Position numbers and translations under genes: made by a program
The notes under the pieces: model-generated
What the model was told of the DNA's origin: nothing
What the model saw: only the letters and a program-made list of their open reading frames with translations
Database searches by the model: none
IMG/VR virus record: IMGVR_UViG_3300018018_000001
Location: 96,001-160,000 of that record
Direction: 5' to 3' (one strand)
DNA length: 64,000 nucleotides
DNA from: a virus
Shown: one piece after another, positions 3,416-61,710 of the stretch
Layout of the letters: the number at the start of each line of letters is the position of its first letter
How positions within the stretch are numbered: the first letter of the stretch is position 1

Positions 3416-3878
3416 TTGTTATTCCTCAAATATTGATTTGAAAACTTTCTTTATTAATTCAGCAAAATATTCTTCTGCTACTTTCCAAGTTTCTTTTCTG
3501 GTTTCCCTTGTGTATTCAAATTCCCTAACCTCAGGCCAAAATATTTCATTCTGTCCTTTCTTTTCAAAAATCTTAATTCTTGGACCATAATATCCTTGTG
3601 ATCCACGTGCTACCCAAGTCATATGGCCTTTACTGTATGCCATTAGGTAATGCTCTGTTTCGTGAATAATCTGTAAGGGAACACCAAAATCAACTCCACC
3701 TGTTGTAAAGACAGGTTTTCCCTTATCATCGTCAAATCTGGTCATTGGTAATGGTTGACTAAACATTCTTACCTCATTAATACGGGAGCCAGGGTGTCTA
3801 AACCTCCCATAGTCTGGAATCTTGGGAATTCCCCGCACCAGAAAAGAGGTAATTCCCCGGCTCCTAACCATTAAAAGT

Positions 3879-4801: not shown

Positions 4802-7051
4802 TTATTTTGGTGATTCTGTTTTCACTATATCTTTTTGAAGAAATCTGAGTAATTCTCCCTGAAATTTTTCTACTGTGGGGAGATTAAGGCATCGGGGTTC
4901 ATGAAGTAAGCAAGTTTCCCACCACCCCTCCCCCACTACGGCATTCCAGAAACAAGGATCACAGGCCCCTGTGTGAAGAAGAATATCATTGGAATTCTTG
5001 TAGAAGAACAACTCTGGAGGAGTGCATGTTTGCCATACCATTGATGGGGTTCCTACAGAGTGAGCAAGATGATAAAGAAATCCCTCTAATCCAAAATATA
5101 AGCTGGCTCTTTTGAGCACATTGGCCGAATCCATAATGCTCAATCCTCTGAAATCAAGGTCTACATCCTTAATCAAATCATCATCTTTTGGTCCCAATTG
5201 GGCTATGGGATAAACCCCTTTGGCTATTCTTAAAATTTCACTTAGTTCTTCATCTTTGATGCATTTCAAGTTTCCTACTGTTCCTACATTATTATGGACT
5301 ACAATAAACTTTTCGGGTAAGGTATCCACGCCATTTGGCAGTTTAGTAGATTTATAATCTATATCAAAGGATAAATCTTTGATACTTGCATACTTTTCCA
5401 ATCCACAACTCTTTAACATCAAGTCAATTACGTGCATTCCAAGTTGTTTCAATCGGCAATTGGAAAAGGCCCACCCATTGTAAAATTCAATATACTTATT
5501 GGCAAATTCATTATTCTCTTCTCCATAGACTCTACTGACATATCGAACATCATAAAGAGTATCGAAAGTATGCAAAAGAGATTTCAGGACAGTGTTGTAA
5601 TGGACTCCTTTTTCCAGAGTAACATAGTCTACTAATCCAGGTTGAGTTAATAGAATCTCATCCCCCTTTTCAATGATCGCCACAACCCATGCTTTGGGAT
5701 GCTTTCTCCGGATTCCCTTTAATACAGGGATAAGCTGAAGAGTATCACCATACCCACCTAATTTGATTACCCCGATATACTTTCTTCCTTTCAATAATTT
5801 CTTGGCTTCTAAAGCCATGGTCCTAAGAGGTACATTTATTGGGGCAAAGAAATAGGGTCTAACAGGTTCCAGTTTAACTTTGGATAAATTATCTACCTCT
5901 TCTTTCAATTTCTCATAAGAGGCTTCCCAAGAATATTTCTGGACCCACTCATAAGCCGTATCTGTTATTTTCTTGGCCCTTTTCCCCTCTTTGTATTTCC
6001 AATCATCATACAAATCATTCAGAGTATTTACTATTTTTTGCTCAGAAGGGATAGCCATTTTCTGTCCTTGATCCCCTGTTATCCAAGCGGCTACATCAAT
6101 CAAACAACCTCTACCCTCAGACAAAATTTCTGTTCCTGAGGTATAATCGGTTCCTATTGCTACTATCTTTGCAGCCATGGCTTCCAGGTAGGGTAATCCT
6201 AATCCCTCACAAGAGCTATTCAGAAGAAGGGCATGAGATTGAGCATAGATTTTGGCCAATATATCATCCTTTAGAATTTTTCCTGTTCCTGAAGCATCTA
6301 CTAAGTTAATCTTTAATCTCAGGCCGGGGTAATGGGGGATTATATCCAGAAGATCATACCCCTCAGGATCACGGGCTGCGGTGACTAAATACAAAACTGT
6401 ATCATCCTTTTTCTGTGAAAATTTGTGAAATGCCTCAAGGCTTAGGGGTATCTGCTTTCTTACACAATTTTTGGATACTACCAGGACCGTAAACTTATTG
6501 GATTTTGTTTGTTCTTTTACAGCCTTGTCAAATAGATCCAAATCAACCCCATGATATATGACTTTAATATTTCCATTATCAGCATTAACTTTGGAAGGGT
6601 AATCTTTTAGAACTCTAGCTCCCCAGTAAGAAGTAGTTACAACTTTATCAAAAGAATCAAGAATTTCACAGTAAGCAAGACTCAAGGGAGAGGAATCTAT
6701 GTTAATATATCCTAAAACTTTCATTCTCTTATCCCTGTGGTCCCTTGATAGGTTATATTCATTCTTTATGGAGGGTAGGATTCCGAAATGCCAAAGATCT
6801 CCATGACAGAATAAAATATCAGGGGCTATCCTTAGAATATGGCCAGTAAGGGCATCCCTGTCTAATCGGCTACCTATTGGGTGAGTTACATAGGGTAATT
6901 TTATATCAGTTTGTTTATAATTGTATCCAGTACACTCCACATGATACCCATCCCTATGAAATCTGTTAGCCAATTCCCGACAAGTTTTTCCCATTCCCGA
7001 ATAGCTTTGAGGGGAATCAGTCACGAAAAGAATTTTAGCTTTTTTATCCAT
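4802..7051 (-). CDS. Two-domain glycosyltransferase: GT4-like + GT9 (heptosyltransferase-like)
   Basis: N-terminal GT-B with GMGK, HGVD and EGLGLPYLEAMAA; C-terminal IKLGGYGDTLQLIPVLKGIRRKHPKA and EGFLYHLAHSVGTPS typical of GT9. Confidence 0.85.
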   Translation of the reverse strand: MDKKAKILFVTDSPQSYSGMGKTCRELANRFHRDGYHVECTGYNYKQTDIKLPYVTHPIGSRLDRDALTGHILRIAPDILFCHGDLWHFGILPSIKNEYNLSRDHRDKRMKVLGYINIDSSPLSLAYCEILDSFDKVVTTSYWGARVLKDYPSKVNADNGNIKVIYHGVDLDLFDKAVKEQTKSNKFTVLVVSKNCVRKQIPLSLEAFHKFSQKKDDTVLYLVTAARDPEGYDLLDIIPHYPGLRLKINLVDASGTGKILKDDILAKIYAQSHALLLNSSCEGLGLPYLEAMAAKIVAIGTDYTSGTEILSEGRGCLIDVAAWITGDQGQKMAIPSEQKIVNTLNDLYDDWKYKEGKRAKKITDTAYEWVQKYSWEASYEKLKEEVDNLSKVKLEPVRPYFFAPINVPLRTMALEAKKLLKGRKYIGVIKLGGYGDTLQLIPVLKGIRRKHPKAWVVAIIEKGDEILLTQPGLVDYVTLEKGVHYNTVLKSLLHTFDTLYDVRYVSRVYGEENNEFANKYIEFYNGWAFSNCRLKQLGMHVIDLMLKSCGLEKYASIKDLSFDIDYKSTKLPNGVDTLPEKFIVVHNNVGTVGNLKCIKDEELSEILRIAKGVYPIAQLGPKDDDLIKDVDLDFRGLSIMDSANVLKRASLYFGLEGFLYHLAHSVGTPSMVWQTCTPPELFFYKNSNDILLHTGACDPCFWNAVVGEGWWETCLLHEPRCLNLPTVEKFQGELLRFLQKDIVKTESPK

Positions 7052-22091: not shown

Positions 22092-22612
22092 GAGGATAAA
22101 ATGATAATCCCGGAATATTTCTATTATCGTGCATTGAATAATGGAGAGGTTCATGTCTTTTACAAAGAGACAAGAATCTTTATCATGAAGAAGAAATGGA
22201 TAAAGGATGGATCAGGATTTACTATGGACTACTGGACTTGCAAATCCACCCTGTCCTATGTCCCTTCATTTAAAGAACCGGATTTTGATAAGGCTAAAGC
22301 AATGATTATGAAAGAACTGGAAAAATTCCTTAACCTATTTTCGGAGGATAAATAATCATGAGATTAAAAAACCATTTCGAGAAAATGTTTGACGGTATTT
22401 ATTTAAGCTATAAATCCATATCCATAACCGATGATGGTAGACTGATTATGAAGACTGTCGGTTGCGGATGCTGCTCTGATGTGGAACCAGTGGATACGGA
22501 TAACCTCCTGAAGGCGATTACTGAAACTGAGCACTACCTGAACCATCTTAAGGAATTAAAAAACAGGATTAAGAAAAATGCCCCTCTTCCGAAATTAAAG
22601 GAGAAATATAGT

Positions 22613-22640
22613 TAAACTTTTTATATGTTCCCGCCGATAA
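22613..22640 (+). promoter_or_regulatory. sigma28-like promoter P3
   Basis: TAAA-N16-GCCGATAA upstream of ATG 22663. Confidence 0.8.
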
Positions 22641-22931
22641 GATAATTAAAGGGAGGAATATTATGAACTTAGTAGAATTCTTTGACCCAAGAAACCTGGA
22701 CCATATTAAGGCTTACAAACATCTTTGTGATAAAGGAAAATATGGAAAGAACAAAAGGAATAAAACATAAATGGAAAAAAGAAAGAAAAATAACTAATGA
22801 AATGATTTTAAAAATCACGGAGTTAAGAAAGAATGGTAAAAAATTAAAAGAAATAAAAAATGAAACAGGAATAAATACCTGTACTATCAGCTTAATTTGC
22901 AATAAAAAATATAGATTTAGTTAAAAAAGAC

Positions 22932-23001: not shown

Positions 23002-24477
23002 ATGGCTTCAAAATTCAATCAATATCTTAAAGCGGGGTATCCGGCCATTTGGATTGAAACTCATGAAGAATTCAGGGCTATTGCCACCCTAGCTTTTGAG
23101 TCAAATGGATATTCGGTTTTCTCATGGGATGTAGTCACTGGCCAACGGGACCATGCCACTGATAAGTATACAAAGGAATCCCCTGAAACCCCGATGAAAG
23201 AGATTGGCCGAATTCTCCAGATGAAACCCGGTAGTGTAGTATTTCTTAAGGATTTTCCCAAGTTTTTTAACAATATTGAAGTCCTTCGTTCAATTAAAAA
23301 TCTCATTTCTGAGATTAAAGCTGATGACAGGCATATTATTTTTATCAGTCCTGCGGTAAATATCCCCATTGAATTGGAAAAGGATGTAACCGTATTGCCC
23401 TTTACCCTTCCTACCGTTGATGAATTGGTCCAGGTAGCGGAGAAGATAGTAAAAGATAACAAGTTTGATTCAGATAAATTTGATAAGAATAATAAACTGA
23501 TTTCTAAAAAAGTAGAAGTGGACCGTAAAACCATTTCAGTGGCCAAAGGGTTAACCCTACAAGAGGCCGAAAATGCAATGGCCAGATCCATAGTGGAAGA
23601 AAAGGGATTTTCCCGAAAGATCCTGGAAGAAGAAAAACTCCAGTGCATTAAGAAGTCAGGCATGATGGAACTCTTTGAACCCATGCCCGAAGCCGAATTG
23701 GTTATGGATGGATTGAAAATGTATATCCATAGGAGAGTCAAGGGTTTTGAGCCTGATTCTACTATGCCCACTCCTAAGGGAATTCTCTTGGTGGGTATTC
23801 CAGGTGGTGGGAAGTCATTGGCCTCTAAGGTTATCGCCAGTGTTCTGGGTTGCCCTCTGGTTCGTGTAGACATTGGGGCCTTAAAGGGTAGCAAGGTGGG
23901 GGAATCCGAAGCCCGTATGAGACAGTGTTTAGCCCAAATTGATGCCTTAGGATTCTGTGTAGTGTGGATGGATGAGATTGAAAAAGTCCTGAGCGGTGTT
24001 CAATCCAGTGGCCAATCGGATGCAGGGACAACCTCTACCATGTTTGGAACCCTGTTAACCTGGATGCAAGAATCAAAATTCCCCCATTACATTGTGGCCA
24101 CCTGTAATGAAATTCAAGACTTACTGGCCATTTCCCAAGGTGCCTTGTTAAGACGGTTTGATGATATCTTTTTTGTAGATCTTCCTTCTAAAGAAGAACG
24201 TGAAGAAATTATTAAGATTATGAATAAGAGATACAGCACTAAATTAAATGGAAATTTAGCGGAAAGAACTCAGGGATGGACTGGAGCAGAAATTGAAAAA
24301 TATGTTATAGCCAGTATTTATGATGGAGAAGAAGAAGCTTTCAATAATGTCCATCCAATTAGTGAACAGAACAAAGAGATCATTGAAAATGCCCGGAAAT
24401 GGTCTTTACAAAATGCACGTATCGCTAATTCAAGAAAAGTGGAAATTAAACCTGAAGGAAGAAAGATTAGAGTGTAG
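23002..24477 (+). CDS. Ycf46-like AAA+ ATPase
   Basis: N-terminal inactive AAA-like domain (YPAIWIETHEE, FLKDF, IPIELEKD), Walker A GIPGGGKS, Walker B WMDEIEK, RRFDDIFFVDLP. Confidence 0.85.
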   Translation: MASKFNQYLKAGYPAIWIETHEEFRAIATLAFESNGYSVFSWDVVTGQRDHATDKYTKESPETPMKEIGRILQMKPGSVVFLKDFPKFFNNIEVLRSIKNLISEIKADDRHIIFISPAVNIPIELEKDVTVLPFTLPTVDELVQVAEKIVKDNKFDSDKFDKNNKLISKKVEVDRKTISVAKGLTLQEAENAMARSIVEEKGFSRKILEEEKLQCIKKSGMMELFEPMPEAELVMDGLKMYIHRRVKGFEPDSTMPTPKGILLVGIPGGGKSLASKVIASVLGCPLVRVDIGALKGSKVGESEARMRQCLAQIDALGFCVVWMDEIEKVLSGVQSSGQSDAGTTSTMFGTLLTWMQESKFPHYIVATCNEIQDLLAISQGALLRRFDDIFFVDLPSKEEREEIIKIMNKRYSTKLNGNLAERTQGWTGAEIEKYVIASIYDGEEEAFNNVHPISEQNKEIIENARKWSLQNARIANSRKVEIKPEGRKIRV

Positions 24478-24486
24478 AGAATTAAT

Positions 24487-25116
24487 ATGATTATTTCTAA
24501 ACTTTGTGAATGTAATTGTGGCCAATATGCTAAACCTGGAAATAGATTTATTCTTGGTCATAATACAAAAGGGAAAAAGAATCTTACTCTCTCTGAAAGA
24601 AATAAGAAACGAAATATGAAGGGTGAGAATAACCCTATGTTTGGAAATAAAAATCCAATTCGTTCCGAAATGAATAAACAAAATGTGGGTGAAAAGAATC
24701 CTTGTTTTAAGAGAAAACATACTGAAGATGAATTAAGAAATCTTAGTAAGCTTAATAAAGGTAAAAAGAGACCTTATGTTTCCGAAAGAAATAAAAAATT
24801 GGTAGGTAACAAGAATCCAATATTTGGTAAGAAGGGTGAACTTAGTCCAAATTGGAAAGGAGGAATCTCTTTTGAACTTTATGGTCTTGGATTTAATAAA
24901 GAGTTAAAGAAATATATTAGAGAGAAATTTAATCATACTTGTGTTCTTTGCGGTGAGTTTGCAAAGATCCCCCATCATATAGATTATAATAAGAGGAATA
25001 ATCAGGAAGATAATTTTGTCCTTTTATGTAATTCATGTAATTCCAAAGTTAATAAGAATAGAATCCAATGGGAAATTTATTTTAGATCATATATTCTAAG
25101 ATTAAAGGAGGAATAA
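24487..25116 (+). CDS. HNH homing endonuclease with NUMOD3-like repeats (paralog 2)
   Basis: CECNCG, NPMFG repeats, CVLCG...HHIDYNK...LCNSCN. Confidence 0.8.
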   Translation: MIISKLCECNCGQYAKPGNRFILGHNTKGKKNLTLSERNKKRNMKGENNPMFGNKNPIRSEMNKQNVGEKNPCFKRKHTEDELRNLSKLNKGKKRPYVSERNKKLVGNKNPIFGKKGELSPNWKGGISFELYGLGFNKELKKYIREKFNHTCVLCGEFAKIPHHIDYNKRNNQEDNFVLLCNSCNSKVNKNRIQWEIYFRSYILRLKEE

Positions 25117-25117
25117 A

Positions 25118-25880
25118 ATGCCAAGGGAAGTATTAAGAGATGAAGTAGAACATGTGGAATTAGAGGTAAGTCAACTGGAGAAAGAGCGGAAAGAACTCAA
25201 TGCCGAAGCTGAATTTGAACTTGAGGTTGATTCCTTGACTTTTGAAATAGCGTGGTCCACAAATTTACCTTATGAAGAAGCCAGAAAACAGGCTCTTAAA
25301 AAATTAATGAGTAAGGGGGTTTAAGAGGAAGTAACATGGAGGCAATATATATTTATGTAAGTACGTTGTTCTTTATTTTTGCCGGATTCGTGGTTAAGTG
25401 GTCTGCAGGATGGGGGAATACGTTTGTAAGGTTTATCGCAATCCTGCTGGCTATCTCAGGGATAGTCTTATCCTTGGCTAAACTGGGGTTTATGCTTCCC
25501 CCTCTGATACATCCATAAGGAGAAAAATCACTATGAAATTTGCAAGTCCAGAACAATACCTTACCGCAGGATGCCTTTTCTTGGTGGGAGAAAAAAAGAA
25601 CCAAACAATATTCAATGGTCTTCATGAAAATACAAATGGAAGTATCTGTGAGACTGGTTGCGCCTACATTGATAAATGCCAGGCTTATAGGATTCTTTCC
25701 TCAAGGCTCACTGAAACCCCTGAGGAAAAGAAAATACCCATGCCTACCAATGCCCAGATAGCCGCTAAGCTGGGGGTAACAAAAAGGCAGGTGTCCAAGA
25801 TGAGAATCAAAGGAACTCTTAAGGCTGAAATCCTTAAGAGGGGTTTGGAAAACGAATTTAGTAATCTATCACTGATTTAG
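25118..25880 (+). other. Hypothetical proteins 25118-25324, 25336-25518 (2 TM) and 25533-25880 (C-terminal HTH)
   Basis: TNAQIAAKLGVTKRQVSKM is a helix-turn-helix signature. Confidence 0.6.
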
Positions 25881-26010
25881 TGGATTCTCAGGAATACCTA
25901 GAAGGTGAGAAAACGGGATGGGAACCGGAGACCCAGAATAACTACTCGAAGGGCTGATTCCCGTATCTGTAGGTCCTTTATCCCTGTGATTTCCTATTAG
26001 AGGGTAGAAT

Positions 26011-26091
26011 GATAAGGTAGCCCAGTGGGGAAGGGCAGCAGACTGTAAATTTGTGGCTTCGGCTGTGTAGGTTCAAATCCTACCCTTATCA
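26011..26091 (+). tRNA. trnY: tRNA-Tyr(GTA), no encoded CCA
   Basis: Acceptor GATAAGG/CCTTATC + A73, D stem GCCC/GGGC, anticodon loop CTGTAAA, long variable arm GGCTTCGGCT, T arm GTAGG-TTCAAAT-CCTAC. Confidence 0.9.
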
Positions 26092-26138
26092 TTCTGCTCT
26101 TTATTTAATGACATTTTATGTCACCATTAAAAAATAAC

Positions 26139-26165
26139 TAAACTTTTTCCAGGAATAGCCGATAA
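26139..26165 (+). promoter_or_regulatory. sigma28-like promoter P5
   Basis: TAAA-N15-GCCGATAA; palindrome TGACATTTTATGTCA at 26109-26123. Confidence 0.8.
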
Positions 26166-26203
26166 GATATTTAGAGGCAAGAAAATAACAAGGAGGTAAG
26201 AGA

Positions 26204-26353
26204 GTGAAGATTGTTAAACCCATCGGATACTTTGAGGACCATCGGCAGAAGAAGTTATTTCTGTTAGACAAAGCCACTTTAACCTTGACTCAGGTTCAGG
26301 AAACCATGTTTAAAAAGTGGAAGGCCATAATTGAGCAAAGGATGGAAAGGTAG
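26204..26353 (+). CDS. 49-aa hypothetical protein (not in the ORF track)
   Basis: AGGAGG RBS, GTG start, first ORF after P5. Confidence 0.55.
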   Translation: MKIVKPIGYFEDHRQKKLFLLDKATLTLTQVQETMFKKWKAIIEQRMER

Positions 26354-26870
26354 GAATTTGAAAGAGATTCCTCTAATCCCATTAGTCCCTGAAATGGGCA
26401 ACCAAAAAGCGATTGTTGACGATGAGGATTATGATCGTCTTATAAAATACAAGTGGTATTTGAATGCTCAGGGATACGCAGTCCGGTATATTGAGAAGGA
26501 TGGGAAGCGGGTCTACATCCGTATGCACAGGGAAATCTTTAATACCCCTGAAGGTTTGGATACTGACCATAAAGAGAGGAATAATAGGACAGACAACAGG
26601 AAGGAAAATCTGAGGTCATGTACCCGTGGGGATAATTCAAAAAATTCTAACCCTTGGAGTACTGACAGTAAATTTTGCTCTATTTATAAGGGAGTTACCT
26701 GGCATAATAGGAAAAAACATCCTTGGGTAGCAAGGATTAGGGTTAATAGGAAATATATTCATCTTGGGGTATTCAAAACAGAGATTGAGGCTGCTTTAGC
26801 CTATAATGAGGCAGCCAGGAAGTATTTTAAAGAGTTTGCCTACCAAAATGACATAAAATGTCAACCTTAA
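26331..26870 (+). CDS. HNH + AP2 domain homing endonuclease
   Basis: MHREI...TDHKERNNRTDNRKENLR; AP2 signature YKGVTW...WVARI...HLGVF...AALAYNEAA. Confidence 0.9.
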   Translation: MSKGWKGRNLKEIPLIPLVPEMGNQKAIVDDEDYDRLIKYKWYLNAQGYAVRYIEKDGKRVYIRMHREIFNTPEGLDTDHKERNNRTDNRKENLRSCTRGDNSKNSNPWSTDSKFCSIYKGVTWHNRKKHPWVARIRVNRKYIHLGVFKTEIEAALAYNEAARKYFKEFAYQNDIKCQP

Positions 26871-26877
26871 AAATAAC

Positions 26878-26904
26878 TAAACTTTTTCTAACTTCTGTCG
26901 ATAA
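26878..26904 (+). promoter_or_regulatory. sigma28-like promoter P6
   Basis: TAAA-N15-GTCGATAA; palindrome TGACATAAAATGTCA at 26849-26863. Confidence 0.75.
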
Positions 26905-26949
26905 GATCTATAGAAGTAAGCAAAATAAAAGACAAAGGAGGGTACTACA

Positions 26950-27312
26950 ATTTCTCATACAATGAACATCAGAACTGAGATAAGGGACCGGATAGCTCTT
27001 GAAGCTGCCTGTAAGGAATTGGGCATCAAGATCCTTGAAGGTAATAGCCACCATCTTTATGGTGGAACTGAATATGGAATTGGCCTTAAAATCCCTGGCT
27101 GGAATTACCCGGTAGTAGTCAAGGATAATGGGACCTTGGCCTTTGACGATTATAAAGGGTCTTGGGGTAACAAGCAGGACCTTACCAAACTTATGGCCTA
27201 TTATGGCCTTGAGAAGTCTAAGGCTGAAGCTGAGGATCAGGGTTACACAGTAGAGGAAAGTTATAATTCCCAAACTCAAGAATTAGAACTTGAAATCACA
27301 GTGGAGGAATAA
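26950..27312 (+). CDS. DUF1257 (Ycf35)-like protein, probable AUU start
   Basis: SH-x3-I-x-TEI-x-D...L..A...LG pattern; Y.LEK.KAEAE..GY; AGGAGG lies 8 nt before ATT-TCT-CAT. Confidence 0.7.
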   Translation: MSHTMNIRTEIRDRIALEAACKELGIKILEGNSHHLYGGTEYGIGLKIPGWNYPVVVKDNGTLAFDDYKGSWGNKQDLTKLMAYYGLEKSKAEAEDQGYTVEESYNSQTQELELEITVEE

Positions 27313-27314
27313 TC

Positions 27315-27521
27315 ATGTCTAAAAAAATCAAAATGAGATTTGATCTGAGAACGGGAGAAATAAAGGTGGAAGCAGAAGGATTTATAGGCCCTTCTTGCCA
27401 AAAGGCCACTGAATTTCTTAAAAATACCCTTGGGGAAGTAACCGATTTTACCCAAAAATCGGAATGGTTCGAAGAAAACCTTCAGTTATCTGGCTGTATT
27501 GATACTGATCTTTGTGGGTAA
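27315..27521 (+). CDS. DUF2997-like protein
   Basis: GEIKVEAEGFIGPSC...T..L...LG...K.E motif. Confidence 0.8.
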   Translation: MSKKIKMRFDLRTGEIKVEAEGFIGPSCQKATEFLKNTLGEVTDFTQKSEWFEENLQLSGCIDTDLCG

Positions 27522-27524
27522 GAT

Positions 27525-28148
27525 ATGAATATTTGTGATCATGGTTGCGGACAAGAAGCTAAGTATTATTCTCAACAAACTAAAAAATGGCGTTGTAGTA
27601 AATGGCCTAGCTCTTGCCCAGAACTTAGAAGAAAAGATAGTGAGTCCCATAAAAAGCCTAAACCAGATCTTAAATTATGTGAATGTGGCTGTGGGAATTT
27701 TGCTAAGCCGGGTAAGAGATTTATACATTGGCATCATACAAGAGGAAAGAAAAGACTTGACTTGGCTGGCAAAAAAAGACCAGATCATTCTATCAAAATG
27801 ACAGGTGAAGGAAATCCAAGGTTTGGCCAACCTGGTTATTGGAGAGATAAAAATAGGCCAGAATTTTCTGGTGAAAATCATCCTAATTGGCAAGGTGGCG
27901 TCTCTTTTGAACCTTATTCTCCTAAATTTAATAAACAATTTAAGACTATAATAAGAGAAAGAGATAATTACACTTGTCAACTATGTGGAGAATATGGAAA
28001 CTTTGTTCACCACATAGATTACAACAAGGAAAATACCAATCCTAATAATGCATTAACTTTATGCAATCCCGATAATTCTAAGGTAAATTTCAATAGGGAC
28101 CAGTGGGAAACTTATTTTAGGCTTTATTTATTGATAAAAAAGAACTAA
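27525..28148 (+). CDS. HNH homing endonuclease with NUMOD3-like repeats (paralog 3)
   Basis: CDHGCG, CECGCG, GGVSFEPY, CQLCG...HHIDYNK. Confidence 0.8.
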   Translation: MNICDHGCGQEAKYYSQQTKKWRCSKWPSSCPELRRKDSESHKKPKPDLKLCECGCGNFAKPGKRFIHWHHTRGKKRLDLAGKKRPDHSIKMTGEGNPRFGQPGYWRDKNRPEFSGENHPNWQGGVSFEPYSPKFNKQFKTIIRERDNYTCQLCGEYGNFVHHIDYNKENTNPNNALTLCNPDNSKVNFNRDQWETYFRLYLLIKKN

Positions 28149-28172
28149 AGTTTTTTAAAAAACTGACGATAA
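28146..28172 (+). promoter_or_regulatory. sigma28-like promoter P7
   Basis: TAAAGTTT-N11-GACGATAA upstream of ORF 28200. Confidence 0.75.
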
Positions 28173-28199
28173 GATATATAAACAAAAGGAGGAAACAAA

Positions 28200-29060
28200 A
28201 TGGAAACTAACATGCAGGAAAGGGTACTTGTTGTAAGACTACATATTAGTAGATGGTGTCCCTGGGGTTACGATCAAAAAAAGGCTGCAGAGGTAGCTAC
28301 CCAAGAGGGTTCCAAGAAGGAAGATACCCATGTTACCAAGCGGAAAATCAGCAAAGATGCCCTGAAGGATATCAATGATTTGCTGAATCAGGCTTATACC
28401 TATCATATCAGTGTCACGATGCCCTCAGGTGCTGATGGAGATCGGCTGATTACTACCGACCTCTACACCGAATATTGCACCAAGATGAATGAGTTTGAAA
28501 CCAAGATACCGGCAGCTTTGGATAAATTCCTTTCTGAATATCCCACGTGGAAAGAAGAAGCCAGGACCCGCCTCCAGGGATTATTCAAGGAAACCGATTA
28601 TCCCTCAGTGGAAGAAGTCAAGAAGAAATTTTCTATCCGCTATTCTTTCCTGCCTCTCCCCTCAGTCAATAACATTGTGGTCAAGTTAGTCAACGGGGAT
28701 TTGGCCAACGTCCGTAAGAACGTGGAAGAGGAAATGTCTAAGATGTCCGAAATCGCCATGAAAAGCCTGTGGGACAAAACCTATGATGCAGTGGCTCACA
28801 TGGCAGAGATCCTTGGTTCTGATGCCCGTTTACACAAGTCCATGCTGGACAACATGAATGGTCTTTGTAATGTCCTGAAGTCCCTGAATTTCACCAACAA
28901 CCCTGAATTGGAAGAGATGAGGTTAAAGATTTCAGTCCGTTTGGTTGGCCTTGACCCCAATGACCTTCGTAAATCCAGGAGTGTTAGAGAGGAGGTGGCC
29001 CGGGAAGCCAAGTCAATAGCTTTGGAAATATCACAGAAACGTATGATTCGCCTTGAGTAG
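28200..29060 (+). CDS. DUF3150-like helical phage protein
   Basis: LVVRLHISRW N-terminus, F..EYP....EA..RL..LF..DYP, NFTNNPELE; family assignment from memory. Confidence 0.55.
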   Translation: METNMQERVLVVRLHISRWCPWGYDQKKAAEVATQEGSKKEDTHVTKRKISKDALKDINDLLNQAYTYHISVTMPSGADGDRLITTDLYTEYCTKMNEFETKIPAALDKFLSEYPTWKEEARTRLQGLFKETDYPSVEEVKKKFSIRYSFLPLPSVNNIVVKLVNGDLANVRKNVEEEMSKMSEIAMKSLWDKTYDAVAHMAEILGSDARLHKSMLDNMNGLCNVLKSLNFTNNPELEEMRLKISVRLVGLDPNDLRKSRSVREEVAREAKSIALEISQKRMIRLE

Positions 29061-29870
29061 TTTACTGAGTATGGGGAGGGGCCTCCAGAGGTCTCTCAAG
29101 AGGGTATCCCCTTCAGTACCAAAGGATTTGCCCCTCCCCATTTTTTTAGACCAATTTAAAGATGCATTCGATAGGGAGGAACACCTTGTTTCGGCTATTA
29201 AGCAATACCTCAGGACAGAAGAACAGAGGAAATGGCTTTATGATCATGATCTTTCAATTGAGGATTGTTTGAATGGAAGGTATCCTGGGGATCTTGAAGA
29301 AGAAGTGGCTGAGGTTTTATATAAACCCTGGAATGAGATTTTAGGATTTCGTGAGTTTGGATCTTAACAATGTTTTCTTATATTTTTTATATATCTCTTG
29401 GAATAATTCTTATACTGGGAGTAATAGTTATTCCGATTTATGTGAATTTGTCTGAGTCTATTAAAGAAGAGTTAGAAAAGTTAGTTAAAACATCAGAGAG
29501 GATTAAAAATATTCCAAAAGAGGTTACAAAAAATCCAAAGATAGATCGTAAGATCAGATTGGACTAAAAAGGAGAATGAAATGGCAAAGAGACCCACTTT
29601 GAAAGACAAAATTGAGGAAGTCAAGAAACTGAAGGAAATGAAACCTCATGTGCTCAGGCAGAGTATATTTGGGGATGACCATCATGCCGCTATTGACGCC
29701 CAGATTGAAGTCATAGATGAATACATGGGACAGGATGACATTGAAGATAGATTCAGTGGTGAGCCAGAAAATGTTTACACAGCGGCTATGGATGCAGCCA
29801 TATGGTTAGAGGGGGAAGAGATAGACGATTTTACAACCCCATCCGAATCCTGGAAAGAACTGGTGAGGAT

Positions 29871-30116
29871 ATGATAACAAATGCATTTCGACTTCAACCG
29901 CAAGAAACACCAGGAGGGATTGAAGATGTTATTATATTTATTATCATGTGGTTTATTTTTGTTGCAATATATCTTCTCCCGACCATTGTTTCTGTCATAA
30001 GAAAACACAGGAACATGACCGCTATCTTTATCCTGAATGTCTTACTTGGTTGGACATTCTTTGGGTGGGTAGTTGCTCTTATTTGGTCAGTATTTAAAGA
30101 AAAACCAAAAGATTAA
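29871..30116 (+). CDS. Superinfection immunity protein (T4 Imm-like)
   Basis: YLLPTIV...RKH.N..AIFILNVLLGWTFFGWVVALIWS. Confidence 0.9.
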   Translation: MITNAFRLQPQETPGGIEDVIIFIIMWFIFVAIYLLPTIVSVIRKHRNMTAIFILNVLLGWTFFGWVVALIWSVFKEKPKD

Positions 30117-30484
30117 TGATAACACTAAATGAAGCTATAAAGCTTTTGAATAAATATGCACCTTTGGGAACCCCGGAAGAGATTGAGAGGGCCATATACA
30201 AAGCGGAAGAGATTATAGGTGAATATAAATCTTTGTGATCTCCTGAGGAAATACAGGAAGCTTTGGAAGGGGCTAGTAATCTTCTTGAAAGATATAAGAC
30301 TTTTGGAACCCCTGATGAGATTGAAGAGGCTTTTGATTTGGCCAAACAAGCCCTTGGGGATTTAAAAAGCTTGGATGGATATTTAAAGAGTCAGGGGATA
30401 CAGACCCCAAGAGATCCAGTTATTCCCAAGACTGCCAAGGAAGTAATTGAAATGATTTCTAAAAGAAAGATCATTTTAGACTAA
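30116..30484 (+). pseudogene. Three-repeat (Y-x-x-L-G-T-P-E-E-I) protein interrupted by an in-frame TGA at 30236-30238
   Basis: The frame continues across the TGA, which occupies the Gly (GGA) position of repeat 2. Confidence 0.75.
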
Positions 30485-30509
30485 ACTTTTTTTGTCTTTC
30501 TGCCGATAA
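30482..30509 (+). promoter_or_regulatory. sigma28-like promoter P8
   Basis: TAAA-N16-GCCGATAA upstream of ORF 30529. Confidence 0.8.
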
Positions 30510-61102: not shown

Positions 61103-61710
61103 TGAATAGAGATGTGGTAAAGGAGTATCAGGGGGAAGTGGAATTTTTTTGTAAGAATATTAGGGGAGTTATTAATCACCTGGATTCTGTCTATTCCATG
61201 AAAGATATTGAGAATGACTTATGGGTATTAGTTTTTGAAACTGTCAGGGATTATGGGGATGCTGTGAATATATTCCTCATTAGAAAACGGTTCCGTAACC
61301 ATTTGATTAGACTTCTTAGGGGGCGTGCAGTCAGAATAAATGTCCTTCCCAAAATACAAGATAATGGAGAGATGGTAGACATTATTGAAAATTCAATTGA
61401 GGCTTTATACTCTCATTTTATCCATACCCCTGATGATATTTTTGATGGTAATGAACTCTTGAGGTTGGTTGACTCCTGGGTTTCGGAACAGGATGATAAT
61501 ACAAAGAGGGTTATAAGGGAACTCCTTACCCCCTCCCCTGAAGTTCTGGAGAAGTGGGAAGAGATAGCAAAAAAGACTAAGATGTATAGAAATTGTAAGA
61601 GAATTCCCGCTTCTGTAGTATCTAGGATTCTTGGAATAAAATTCAGGGAACATGTTAGAATAATGAGAAATATGAAAAACTATTTGAGAATGAAGGGTTA
61701 TGAGGTATGA
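61102..61710 (+). CDS. Putative phage sigma factor / sigma70 region 2 + HTH protein
   Basis: KDIENDLWV.VFE...Y...IRKRFRNHLI.LLR resembles region 2; C-terminal ASVVSRILGI HTH. Confidence 0.5.
   Translation: MNRDVVKEYQGEVEFFCKNIRGVINHLDSVYSMKDIENDLWVLVFETVRDYGDAVNIFLIRKRFRNHLIRLLRGRAVRINVLPKIQDNGEMVDIIENSIEALYSHFIHTPDDIFDGNELLRLVDSWVSEQDDNTKRVIRELLTPSPEVLEKWEEIAKKTKMYRNCKRIPASVVSRILGIKFREHVRIMRNMKNYLRMKGYEV

Follow-up and report, generated by a model that had tools for sequence, protein, structure and literature searches.

The tail-bearing proteins and their locus

The window analyzed here is a stretch of 64,000 nucleotides that corresponds to bases 96001-160000 of one contig of 181,621 bp (IMG/VR virus record IMGVR_UViG_3300018018_000001; about 36% G+C), the gene content of which is phage-like. 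On its plus strand, right after a strand switch near 20 kb of the window, lie the genes for a Ycf46-type AAA+ ATPase, a DUF1257-like protein, a DUF2997 protein, a divergent DUF3150-family protein (DUF3150L), and two small proteins. The ATPase, DUF3150L, and the two small proteins were reported to end almost alike in a first-pass annotation of this DNA, and reading the frames confirmed the four endings GRKIRV, KRMIRLE, DRKIRLD, and KRKIILD. In the whole genome, seven clear bearers whose bodies are mutually unrelated have such a common end of five to six residues (Arg-Lys-Ile-Arg-Leu-Asp type). The motif was taken as R-[KR/M]-[ILV]-x-[ILVM]-(D/E), located at the C-terminus or one residue from it. 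The genes and tails in the window are as follows.

23002..24477, plus strand: Ycf46-type AAA+ ATPase, 491 aa, ending GRKIRV
24460..24474, plus strand: tail R-K-I-R-V of the ATPase, residues 487-491
26962..27312, plus strand: DUF1257-like (Ycf35-like) small protein, 116 aa, no tail, candidate receptor half
27315..27521, plus strand: DUF2997 small protein, 68 aa, no tail, candidate receptor half
28200..29060, plus strand: DUF3150L, 286 aa, ending KRMIRLE (tail RMIRLE, nt 29040-29057)
29370..29567, plus strand: single-pass membrane protein p29370, 65 aa, ending DRKIRLD (tail RKIRLD, nt 29547-29564)
30263..30484, plus strand: p30263, 73 aa, second repeat of the frame starting at 30116, ending KRKIILD (tail RKIILD, nt 30464-30481)

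Three further bearers and one doubtful case lie outside the window, and are given in genome coordinates.

653-835: 60 aa, ending ITRKVRMD
3436-3642: 68 aa, ending QERKIHIR
26213-26785 (5214-5786 of locus L170): 190-aa Cys-rich protein, ending SRKIRLD
61105-61509: doubtful extra case, ending KRKRKVNAS

The small bearers are diverse. The p29370 protein has a transmembrane helix at residues 4-25 (hydropathy about 2.5 over residues 1-25) followed by a charged soluble part. The 190-aa protein has a DnaJ-like zinc-finger motif (CPVCRGW..CEACGGNG), and its C-terminal half is Cys-rich. The tail of the repeat protein at 30116 stands as first annotated, but the protein is not a single intact one; the frame 30116-30484 consists of two repeats of about 40 aa (..GTPEEIE..A....G..KSL) broken by an in-frame TGA at 30236-30238. 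Thus, the tail-bearing product is either the 73-aa protein starting from the TTG at 30263 or a read-through form. Recoding of the TGA at 30236 was considered and ruled out; TGA is the stop codon of 78 of the 323 genes. Searches of Pfam, PHROGs, NCBIfam, and PADLOC gave no significant match for the small tail proteins, and no recognizable DNA-enzyme domain was found by family searches in any of the seven bearers. Among the PADLOC defence models, the ATPase has only generic AAA matches (IetA, TRIP13), and the other six bearers have none.

The shared ending is a property of the peptide

Is the shared ending a matter of chance? A regular expression was built solely from AAA homologs, so that it is independent of the other bearers, and was tested on the 323 C-termini of the genome. 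It matched 6 of them while 0.25 were expected (Poisson P 3e-7), and a relaxed version matched 8 while 0.34 were expected (P 3e-9). Shuffling of the last 40 residues gave a mean of 0.34-0.41 matches, with a maximum of 4 in 2000 runs. The reversed motif had one match at the C-termini. The forward motif had one match at the N-termini, which is a lipoprotein signal peptide, and apart from it no N-terminal copy of the tag was found in the genome. In the whole proteome, the motif occurs 28 times, and 8 of these occurrences end at most one residue from the C-terminus. In a narrower first scan of all 969 open reading frames (ORFs) of at least 40 aa, the matches were all in plausible genes and none was in a shadow ORF. 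The enrichment over shuffled controls that had been anticipated from the four tails of the window was thus found genome-wide.

The codons differ among the tails (AGA/CGT/AGG, ATT/ATC/ATA, TTG/TTA/CTT/GTG), and the same codon is used at only 28 of 67 identical-residue positions. TGA, TAG, and TAA are all used as stop codons of the tail genes, and the downstream DNA differs. When the last 8 residues were removed, BLAST between the bearers gave no pair below E = 5. Since the codons and the stops differ and the bodies are unrelated, selection acts on the peptide and not on a DNA motif; the synonymous codon differences and the peptide-level selection claimed in the first-pass annotation thus both hold. 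A DNA-level constraint, such as a promoter, terminator, or repeat lying over the gene ends, has one observation in its favor, namely that the -35 box of a sigma-28-like promoter at 30502 overlaps the GAC-TAA of the 30263 gene. Against it stand the differing codons, stops, and downstream DNA of all seven tails, and against both this constraint and chance stands the maintenance of the peptide in orthologs of 43-75% identity. Chance is excluded as the source of the shared ending by the enrichment, and the two explanations together, refuted by the enrichment, the ortholog conservation, and the codon comparison, retain practically no likelihood.

A conserved and flexible tail of a Cdc48-like ATPase

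The ATPase matches the Pfam AAA family (2.3e-20) and has a complete set of motifs: Walker A (GIPGGGKS, 265), Walker B (VVWMDE, 320), TCN (367), and LRRFD (383). The Walker A and B motifs, the sensor 1, and the Arg fingers of a classical-clade AAA domain are all present. Its best sequence matches in the PDB are the D2 domains of VAT, Cdc48, and p97. The pore loop is conserved and non-aromatic (S-[LK]-V-G-E-S-E), being SKVGESE here and SLVGESE in the family. The assignment to the Ycf46 type is based on the source label 'SpoVK/Ycf46/Vps4 family' of the homologs and on the DUF1257/DUF2997 neighborhood.

An AlphaFold2 model of the ATPase had a predicted local distance difference test score (pLDDT) of 91.5. 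In a structure comparison of this model, residues 2-470 aligned to D1-D2 ATPases: NVL (Z 23.3, 430 residues aligned, root-mean-square deviation 5.4), Rix7 (Z 22.4), Pex1/6 (Z 21.5), VAT (Z 21.4), and p97 (Z 21.4). A region of about 220 aa before the AAA domain is conserved across 60 homologs. Since the D1-D2 alignment spans the full length, the first ~220 residues are likely a degenerate D1-like tier and not a Cdc48 N-domain. According to the model, the ATPase is composed of a degenerate D1-like part (residues ~1-220), an active-type D2-like AAA domain, a flexible C-terminal linker, and the tail. Residues 472-491 have a pLDDT of 53-62 and no secondary structure in the model, so that the tail is predicted to be a free and flexible end. 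It is not docked in cis in the modeled monomer.

It was found that nearly all of 119 AAA homologs (46-71% identity) end with (G/E)-R-[KR]-[ILV]-x-[ILV] plus 0-2 residues, and 69 of the 119 have the strict motif within the last 7 residues. In a 60-sequence alignment (47-72% identity), R487 is the same in every sequence, and the stretch of 11 residues that separates it from A475 is variable. Remoter homologs end with R-x-[LIV]-[DE]-[LIV], such as GRTLDL, RALDL, and RKLEI, and gp96 of mycobacteriophage Corndog (28% identity) ends with KVRVLDL. A single-sequence search of viral contigs with the ATPase gave no relatives, while an alignment-based search succeeded. In total, 160 neighborhoods of AAA homologs were fetched; locus names such as L002, L004, and L165 are from these and later fetches.

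Conservation of the tail on partner proteins

DUF3150L itself has no direct Pfam match at E <= 0.01, while its orthologs have a precomputed match to DUF3150 (PF11348). Its alignment with a bona fide DUF3150 protein, which matches PF11348 at 4e-21, has an hhalign probability of 97.2% (E 4e-11, 230 columns), and places DUF3150L in this family. All 14 full-length orthologs (43-75% identity) end with KRK[IL]R[LVI][ED], KRMIRLE, or RRKVRL, and R281 is invariant down to 19% identity. The AlphaFold2 model (pLDDT 83.5) is mostly helical; the last helix runs into a disordered tail (residues 284-286 below 50), which is not docked in cis. A Foldseek search of the PDB with this fold gave nothing at E <= 0.001, and VIA-align gave only generic helical bundles (Z <= 9.6), none of them informative.

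The small bearers also keep their tails. In L165, a relative of 72% identity, the p29370 ortholog (1288-1500) ends identically (DRKIRLD), and the p30263 ortholog (2048-2191), of which only the C-terminal part is present, ends with NRKIIL. The sole homolog of the 190-aa protein, P0137 (44% identity), has a 46-aa internal deletion, and keeps both Cys regions and a tail, EKIERKIRLD. Next to P0137 there is a second tail protein, ending with EKITRKLRLD. The proposed conservation of the tail among homologs is thus seen in the alignments of four independent families. In short, the motif is a conserved flexible end of the ATPase and its DUF3150-family partner, and is copied onto changing unrelated proteins.

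The DUF3150 family is wide (10,801 clusters at 50% identity). About 48 of the 148 best representatives (P0143-P0285) have a Gly-Tyr/Phe or like pair near the end, and the typical alternative end is ..M-[SAK]-G-[YF]-[MIVL]-G... One DUF3150 gene with such an end lies between the genes for a MoxR/AAA_5-like ATPase and a DUF2201 VWA/metallopeptidase-like protein (L174 116-3169, NCBI GCA_003359175.1 contig). From the alternative ends and the MoxR-type neighbor, the type of tail may select the motor. DUF3150 proteins might serve as adaptors with a tail that fits the type of AAA+ motor, an idea that comes from this single locus.

Association with the AAA/DUF1257/DUF2997 module

The DUF1257-like protein (26962-27312) scores 19.7 bits against PF06868, where the cut-off is 22.2; PF06868 is matched by 6 of 18 aligned homologs (best E 2.8e-9). 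The DUF2997 protein (27315-27521) scores 37.3 bits against PF11211, with a cut-off of 24.1, and G14, G22, G25, and C28 are invariant in 19 homologs. None of the 18 DUF1257 homologs and none of the 19 DUF2997 homologs has the tail. The two genes are beside the AAA gene in the window, L002, and L004, and phmmer found DUF1257-like genes in 15 of the fetched loci and DUF2997 genes in 18 (including L003). A natural DUF1257-DUF2997 fusion was found in L026. An apparent AAA-DUF1257 fusion in L026 was rejected as an ORF-calling artefact in a high-GC contig.

In the 12 closest loci, there are 13 non-AAA tail bearers while 0.62 are expected (P 2e-13), and these are spread over 9 of the 12 loci. Of the six non-AAA bearers of the genome studied here, three are encoded no more than 7.5 kb from the AAA gene (P 1.3e-3). 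The module is not limited to phages: L004, a bacterial contig of 353 kb, has a four-gene operon composed of the AAA gene (VRRVRV), a 120-aa gene whose product can be aligned with the DUF1257-like family, a DUF2997 gene, and a gene for a 201-aa protein ending with TRRIRVAG. Thus, of the phage system envisaged in the first-pass annotation, the module and the tail on a phage hold true, but the scope has to be extended to bacterial chromosomal contigs. In many loci of phages and of cells, the tail goes together with the AAA/DUF1257/DUF2997 module.

The bearers vary by lineage, and include the DUF3150 family, two unnamed families, DUF6744, WGR, HHH_3, and UDG + 3'-5' exonuclease proteins. The DNA-related ones in other phage lineages are a UDG + 3'-5' exonuclease, an HHH_3 DNA binder, and a WGR-domain protein (L060 5035-6579, L030 7084-8487, L023 9971-10708). 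These hint that the module can act on DNA-bound proteins. In relatives, the slot between the DUF2997 gene and the DUF3150L gene has a gene for a tail-bearing 'MPNTxEHExxRF' protein (L166 787-1224, L167 1687-2298, L002 13178-13681). Neither this nor another tail family of the relatives, WxITxGxKPRG, has a homolog in the present genome.

Lineage-specific spelling of the tail

Each lineage has its own spelling of the tail, which is common to the ATPase and its neighbors. In L023, the ATPase ends with GRTLEL, and the neighbors with PRTIEI and NRALEL. L030 has GRTLDF on the ATPase with ERNIDI and ERNIDL on the neighbors, L062 has GRQLDL with GRNIDLAG, and L059 has VRAINLN with VRAVVLD and IRAVVLN. 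The ATPase of L060 ends with PRKLKLK, and its neighbors end with KRKLTF (twice) and KRKIQF. A permutation test of the spelling at the two variable core positions in 19 lineages gave 3.31 for the observed pairs while the permuted ones gave -0.26 +/- 0.67. The observed value was not attained in any of 20,000 permutations (P <= 5e-5), although this is a lower bound on the real P because the lineages are not fully independent. Whole-tail BLOSUM similarity showed only an about two-fold enrichment of the same locus over cross-locus pairs; it is the restricted two-position test that is decisive.

Comparison with known systems

No description of the shared tail was found in the literature on DUF1257, DUF2997, DUF3150, Ycf46/Ycf35, and slr0373-0376. 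The function of the stress operon slr0373-slr0374-slr0376 of Synechocystis, in which slr0374 encodes Ycf46, is unknown (PMC7496141). The Ycf46/Ycf35/DUF2997 set of cyanobacteria and plastids is the same trio as in the present locus, where the AAA, DUF1257-like, and DUF2997 genes adjoin. What differs is that the trio is here on a 181-kb phage, together with a partner of the DUF3150 family and several small proteins that carry the tail.

It is a known principle that unrelated proteins carry one terminal peptide for one hub. The motor p97/Cdc48 has a flexible C-terminal tail to which PUB and PUL domains bind, and its unrelated cofactors have VIM, VBM, and SHP motifs in common. The present ATPase resembles p97/Cdc48 in the D1-D2 fold, in the flexible tail after D2, and in the presence of one short motif on unrelated proteins. 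On the other hand, it lacks the Cdc48 N-domain, its D1 is degenerate, the sequence of the motif is different, and the motor and the partners carry the same motif, which is not known for p97. The tails of proteasomal ATPases (HbYX/GQYL) are also conserved C-terminal AAA+ tails, and the present tail would likewise plug into a partner. However, the present tails end with IRV, RLD, RLE, or ILD without any Tyr and hence do not have the hydrophobic-Tyr-X end; up to three residues may follow the core, non-ATPases also bear the tail, and no proteasome or peptidase partner is encoded nearby.

Phages provide a precedent for unrelated proteins with one end peptide that binds one hub, namely the clamp gp45 of T4 with its ligands gp43, gp33, and gp55; the bacterial clamp motif is QL[SD]LF. 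As a further likeness, some bearers in other loci are DNA enzymes or binders (UDG + 3'-5' exonuclease, HHH_3, WGR). In contrast, the seven bearers have no DNA-enzyme domain, their tails have no Gln/Phe pattern (neither Gln nor a terminal Phe, hence neither Q-L-[SD]-L-F nor QLxLxL), and the candidate hub is not a clamp. Short peptides that address an AAA+ motor or a hub include the C-motif 2 of ClpX substrates, which is the RRKKAI end of MuA, and the C-terminal tail of SSB. The MuA end is basic and then hydrophobic, as are ERRIAI and RKIRV. Unlike in these cases, the motor is here encoded by the element itself and bears the tag, and the tail often ends with Asp or Glu.

A possible docking system and its alternatives

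The tail conserved on the Cdc48-like ATPase and on its partners most likely serves as a tag that addresses its bearers to a single docking site. Judged from sequence, the tail is probably a short linear docking motif of the Ycf46-type AAA+/DUF1257/DUF2997 module. All tails would plug into a single receptor surface that co-evolves with them, and the bearers would be gathered at, or handed to, the unfoldase. Since a degenerate D1 takes the place of the Cdc48-type N-domain, the ATPase seems to have no classical cofactor platform of its own. As the receptor, I tentatively prefer the DUF1257-DUF2997 pair, with a chance somewhat below even, because no other members of the module besides the ATPase are invariant, and because these two proteins never bear the tail and occur as natural fusions. 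By analogy with the binding of the p97 tail by PUB and PUL, the tail would attach to the pair as an extra edge strand. The C-terminal strand QELELEITVEE of DUF1257 alternates acidic and hydrophobic residues, and the tails alternate basic and hydrophobic residues. The membrane-anchored p29370 would put part of the assembly at the inner membrane. The charge of AAA columns was also compared with the tail class; dozens of columns had P < 1e-10, but this is uninformative, since the division into two tail classes is also a division into two clades.

Several points weigh against docking to such a receptor. The choice of the receptor is a guess, and the charge match of the DUF1257 strand with the tails comes from few loci and is confounded with phylogeny. 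If the ATPase and the clients used one site of a monovalent adaptor, they would compete for it and would not be bridged. None of the 27 annotated neighboring genes of Corndog gp96 has the tail. Distant members of the AAA family end otherwise in 80 of 147 loci, for example with DRFSVN or DPSxN, and only 20 of the 148 best representatives of the wide DUF3150 family have an R-x-h-x-h end. The partial dependence of the lineages in the spelling test is a further point of this kind.

In the main rival, the ATPase itself would read the tail as a substrate tag, at the axial pore or the D1-like tier, and the bearers would be clients to be unfolded or extracted. The tail of the ATPase would then be a competing, autoinhibitory, or ring-to-ring ligand, and DUF1257 and DUF2997 would have another role. 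In favor of this reading, only the ATPase is always present with the tail, and its spelling goes hand in hand with that of the partners; the ATPase also combines a full set of classical-clade unfoldase motifs for catalysis with the conserved non-aromatic pore loop, the tail is predicted to be disordered as tags are, and MuA and ClpX provide a precedent. Nevertheless, a motor with its own degron on six flexible tails would be unusual, and DUF3150L resembles a dedicated, co-inherited partner and not a client; the undocked tail in the model speaks weakly in the same direction, since it is a model of the monomer only. I therefore regard direct reading as rather unlikely. As a third explanation, a host machine (an AAA+ protease or a hub protein, for example) would read the tail as a degron or docking signal, and the presence of the tail on the phage ATPase would be incidental. 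Host unfoldases can read basic-hydrophobic C-termini, and three bearers are far from the module. However, the module is accompanied by the same tail logic in hosts belonging to many phyla as well as in cellular operons, the spelling varies together with the ATPase that the element encodes with no match to a host grouping seen, and the tail Arg is invariant on the ATPase family itself. A host machine is therefore a very improbable reader.

If the docking motif of the module is generalized, there might be an address code of prokaryotes, mobile elements, and perhaps plastids, in which five-residue tags spelled by lineage plug changing proteins into a Ycf46-type unfoldase via DUF1257-DUF2997, and in which DUF3150 is a general AAA+ adaptor whose type of tail selects the motor. 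R-x-h-x-h would be used for Ycf46-type motors and M-x-G-Y-M-G for MoxR-type motors, and membrane anchors, Zn-ribbon proteins, and DNA enzymes would be among the bearers. This generalization is speculative and I would sooner bet against it than for it. The conservation of Ycf46, Ycf35 (DUF1257), and DUF2997 extends from cyanobacteria and plastids as far as phages and plasmids, and these proteins are still without a mechanism; the address code, if true, would give one to the long-orphaned ycf46 and ycf35 genes. The short, portable, and lineage-specific tail of the motor and its partners is a direct experimental handle, and a nine-residue peptide could find the receptor. The list of tail bearers would give likely partners or clients, genome by genome. 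For phages, it points to a phage-encoded Cdc48-like remodeling machine whose partner set may be readable from sequence alone.

Promoters and neighboring genes

Two sigma-28-like promoters of the same type precede the tail-bearing units.

22609..22644, plus strand: sigma-28-like promoter TTAAACTTTTT-N11-GCCGATAAGATA, ahead of the AAA-containing unit
26134..26169, plus strand: second sigma-28-like promoter of this type, in front of the unit running from AP2 through DUF1257, DUF2997, and DUF3150L to the two small tail genes

The sequence GCCGATAA has 6 copies on the plus strand of the window while 0.56 are expected. Nine near-identical CTAAACTTTTT-N11-GCCGATAAGATA promoters (sigma-28/FliA type) were found, five in the window and four downstream of it.

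Window 20608, 20893, 22633, 26158, and 30502: CTAAACTTTTT-N11-GCCGATAAGATA promoters
Genome 165030, 166582, 174187, and 176369: CTAAACTTTTT-N11-GCCGATAAGATA promoters

From these positions, the four bearers of the window are encoded in two neighboring units with promoters of one class. The remaining three bearers are 93-118 kb away and have no sigma-28-like promoter nearby. Thus, the co-regulation suggested in the first-pass annotation applies to the four proteins of the window, which have two adjacent promoters of one type, but does not extend to the three distant bearers. A tRNA-Tyr (GTA) gene is located at window 26010-26092, between the AAA transcription unit and the promoter at 26158.

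Two look-alike HNH endonuclease genes (24487-25116 and 27525-28148), with the motifs CxCxCG..AKPG..F and HHIDYNK, lie inside the module. Between p29370 and p30263, there is a gene for a superinfection-immunity membrane protein (Imm_superinfect, PF14373, 9e-18) at window 29802-30116. The same layout, with an Imm_superinfect gene between small tail genes, was found in L165 and L167.

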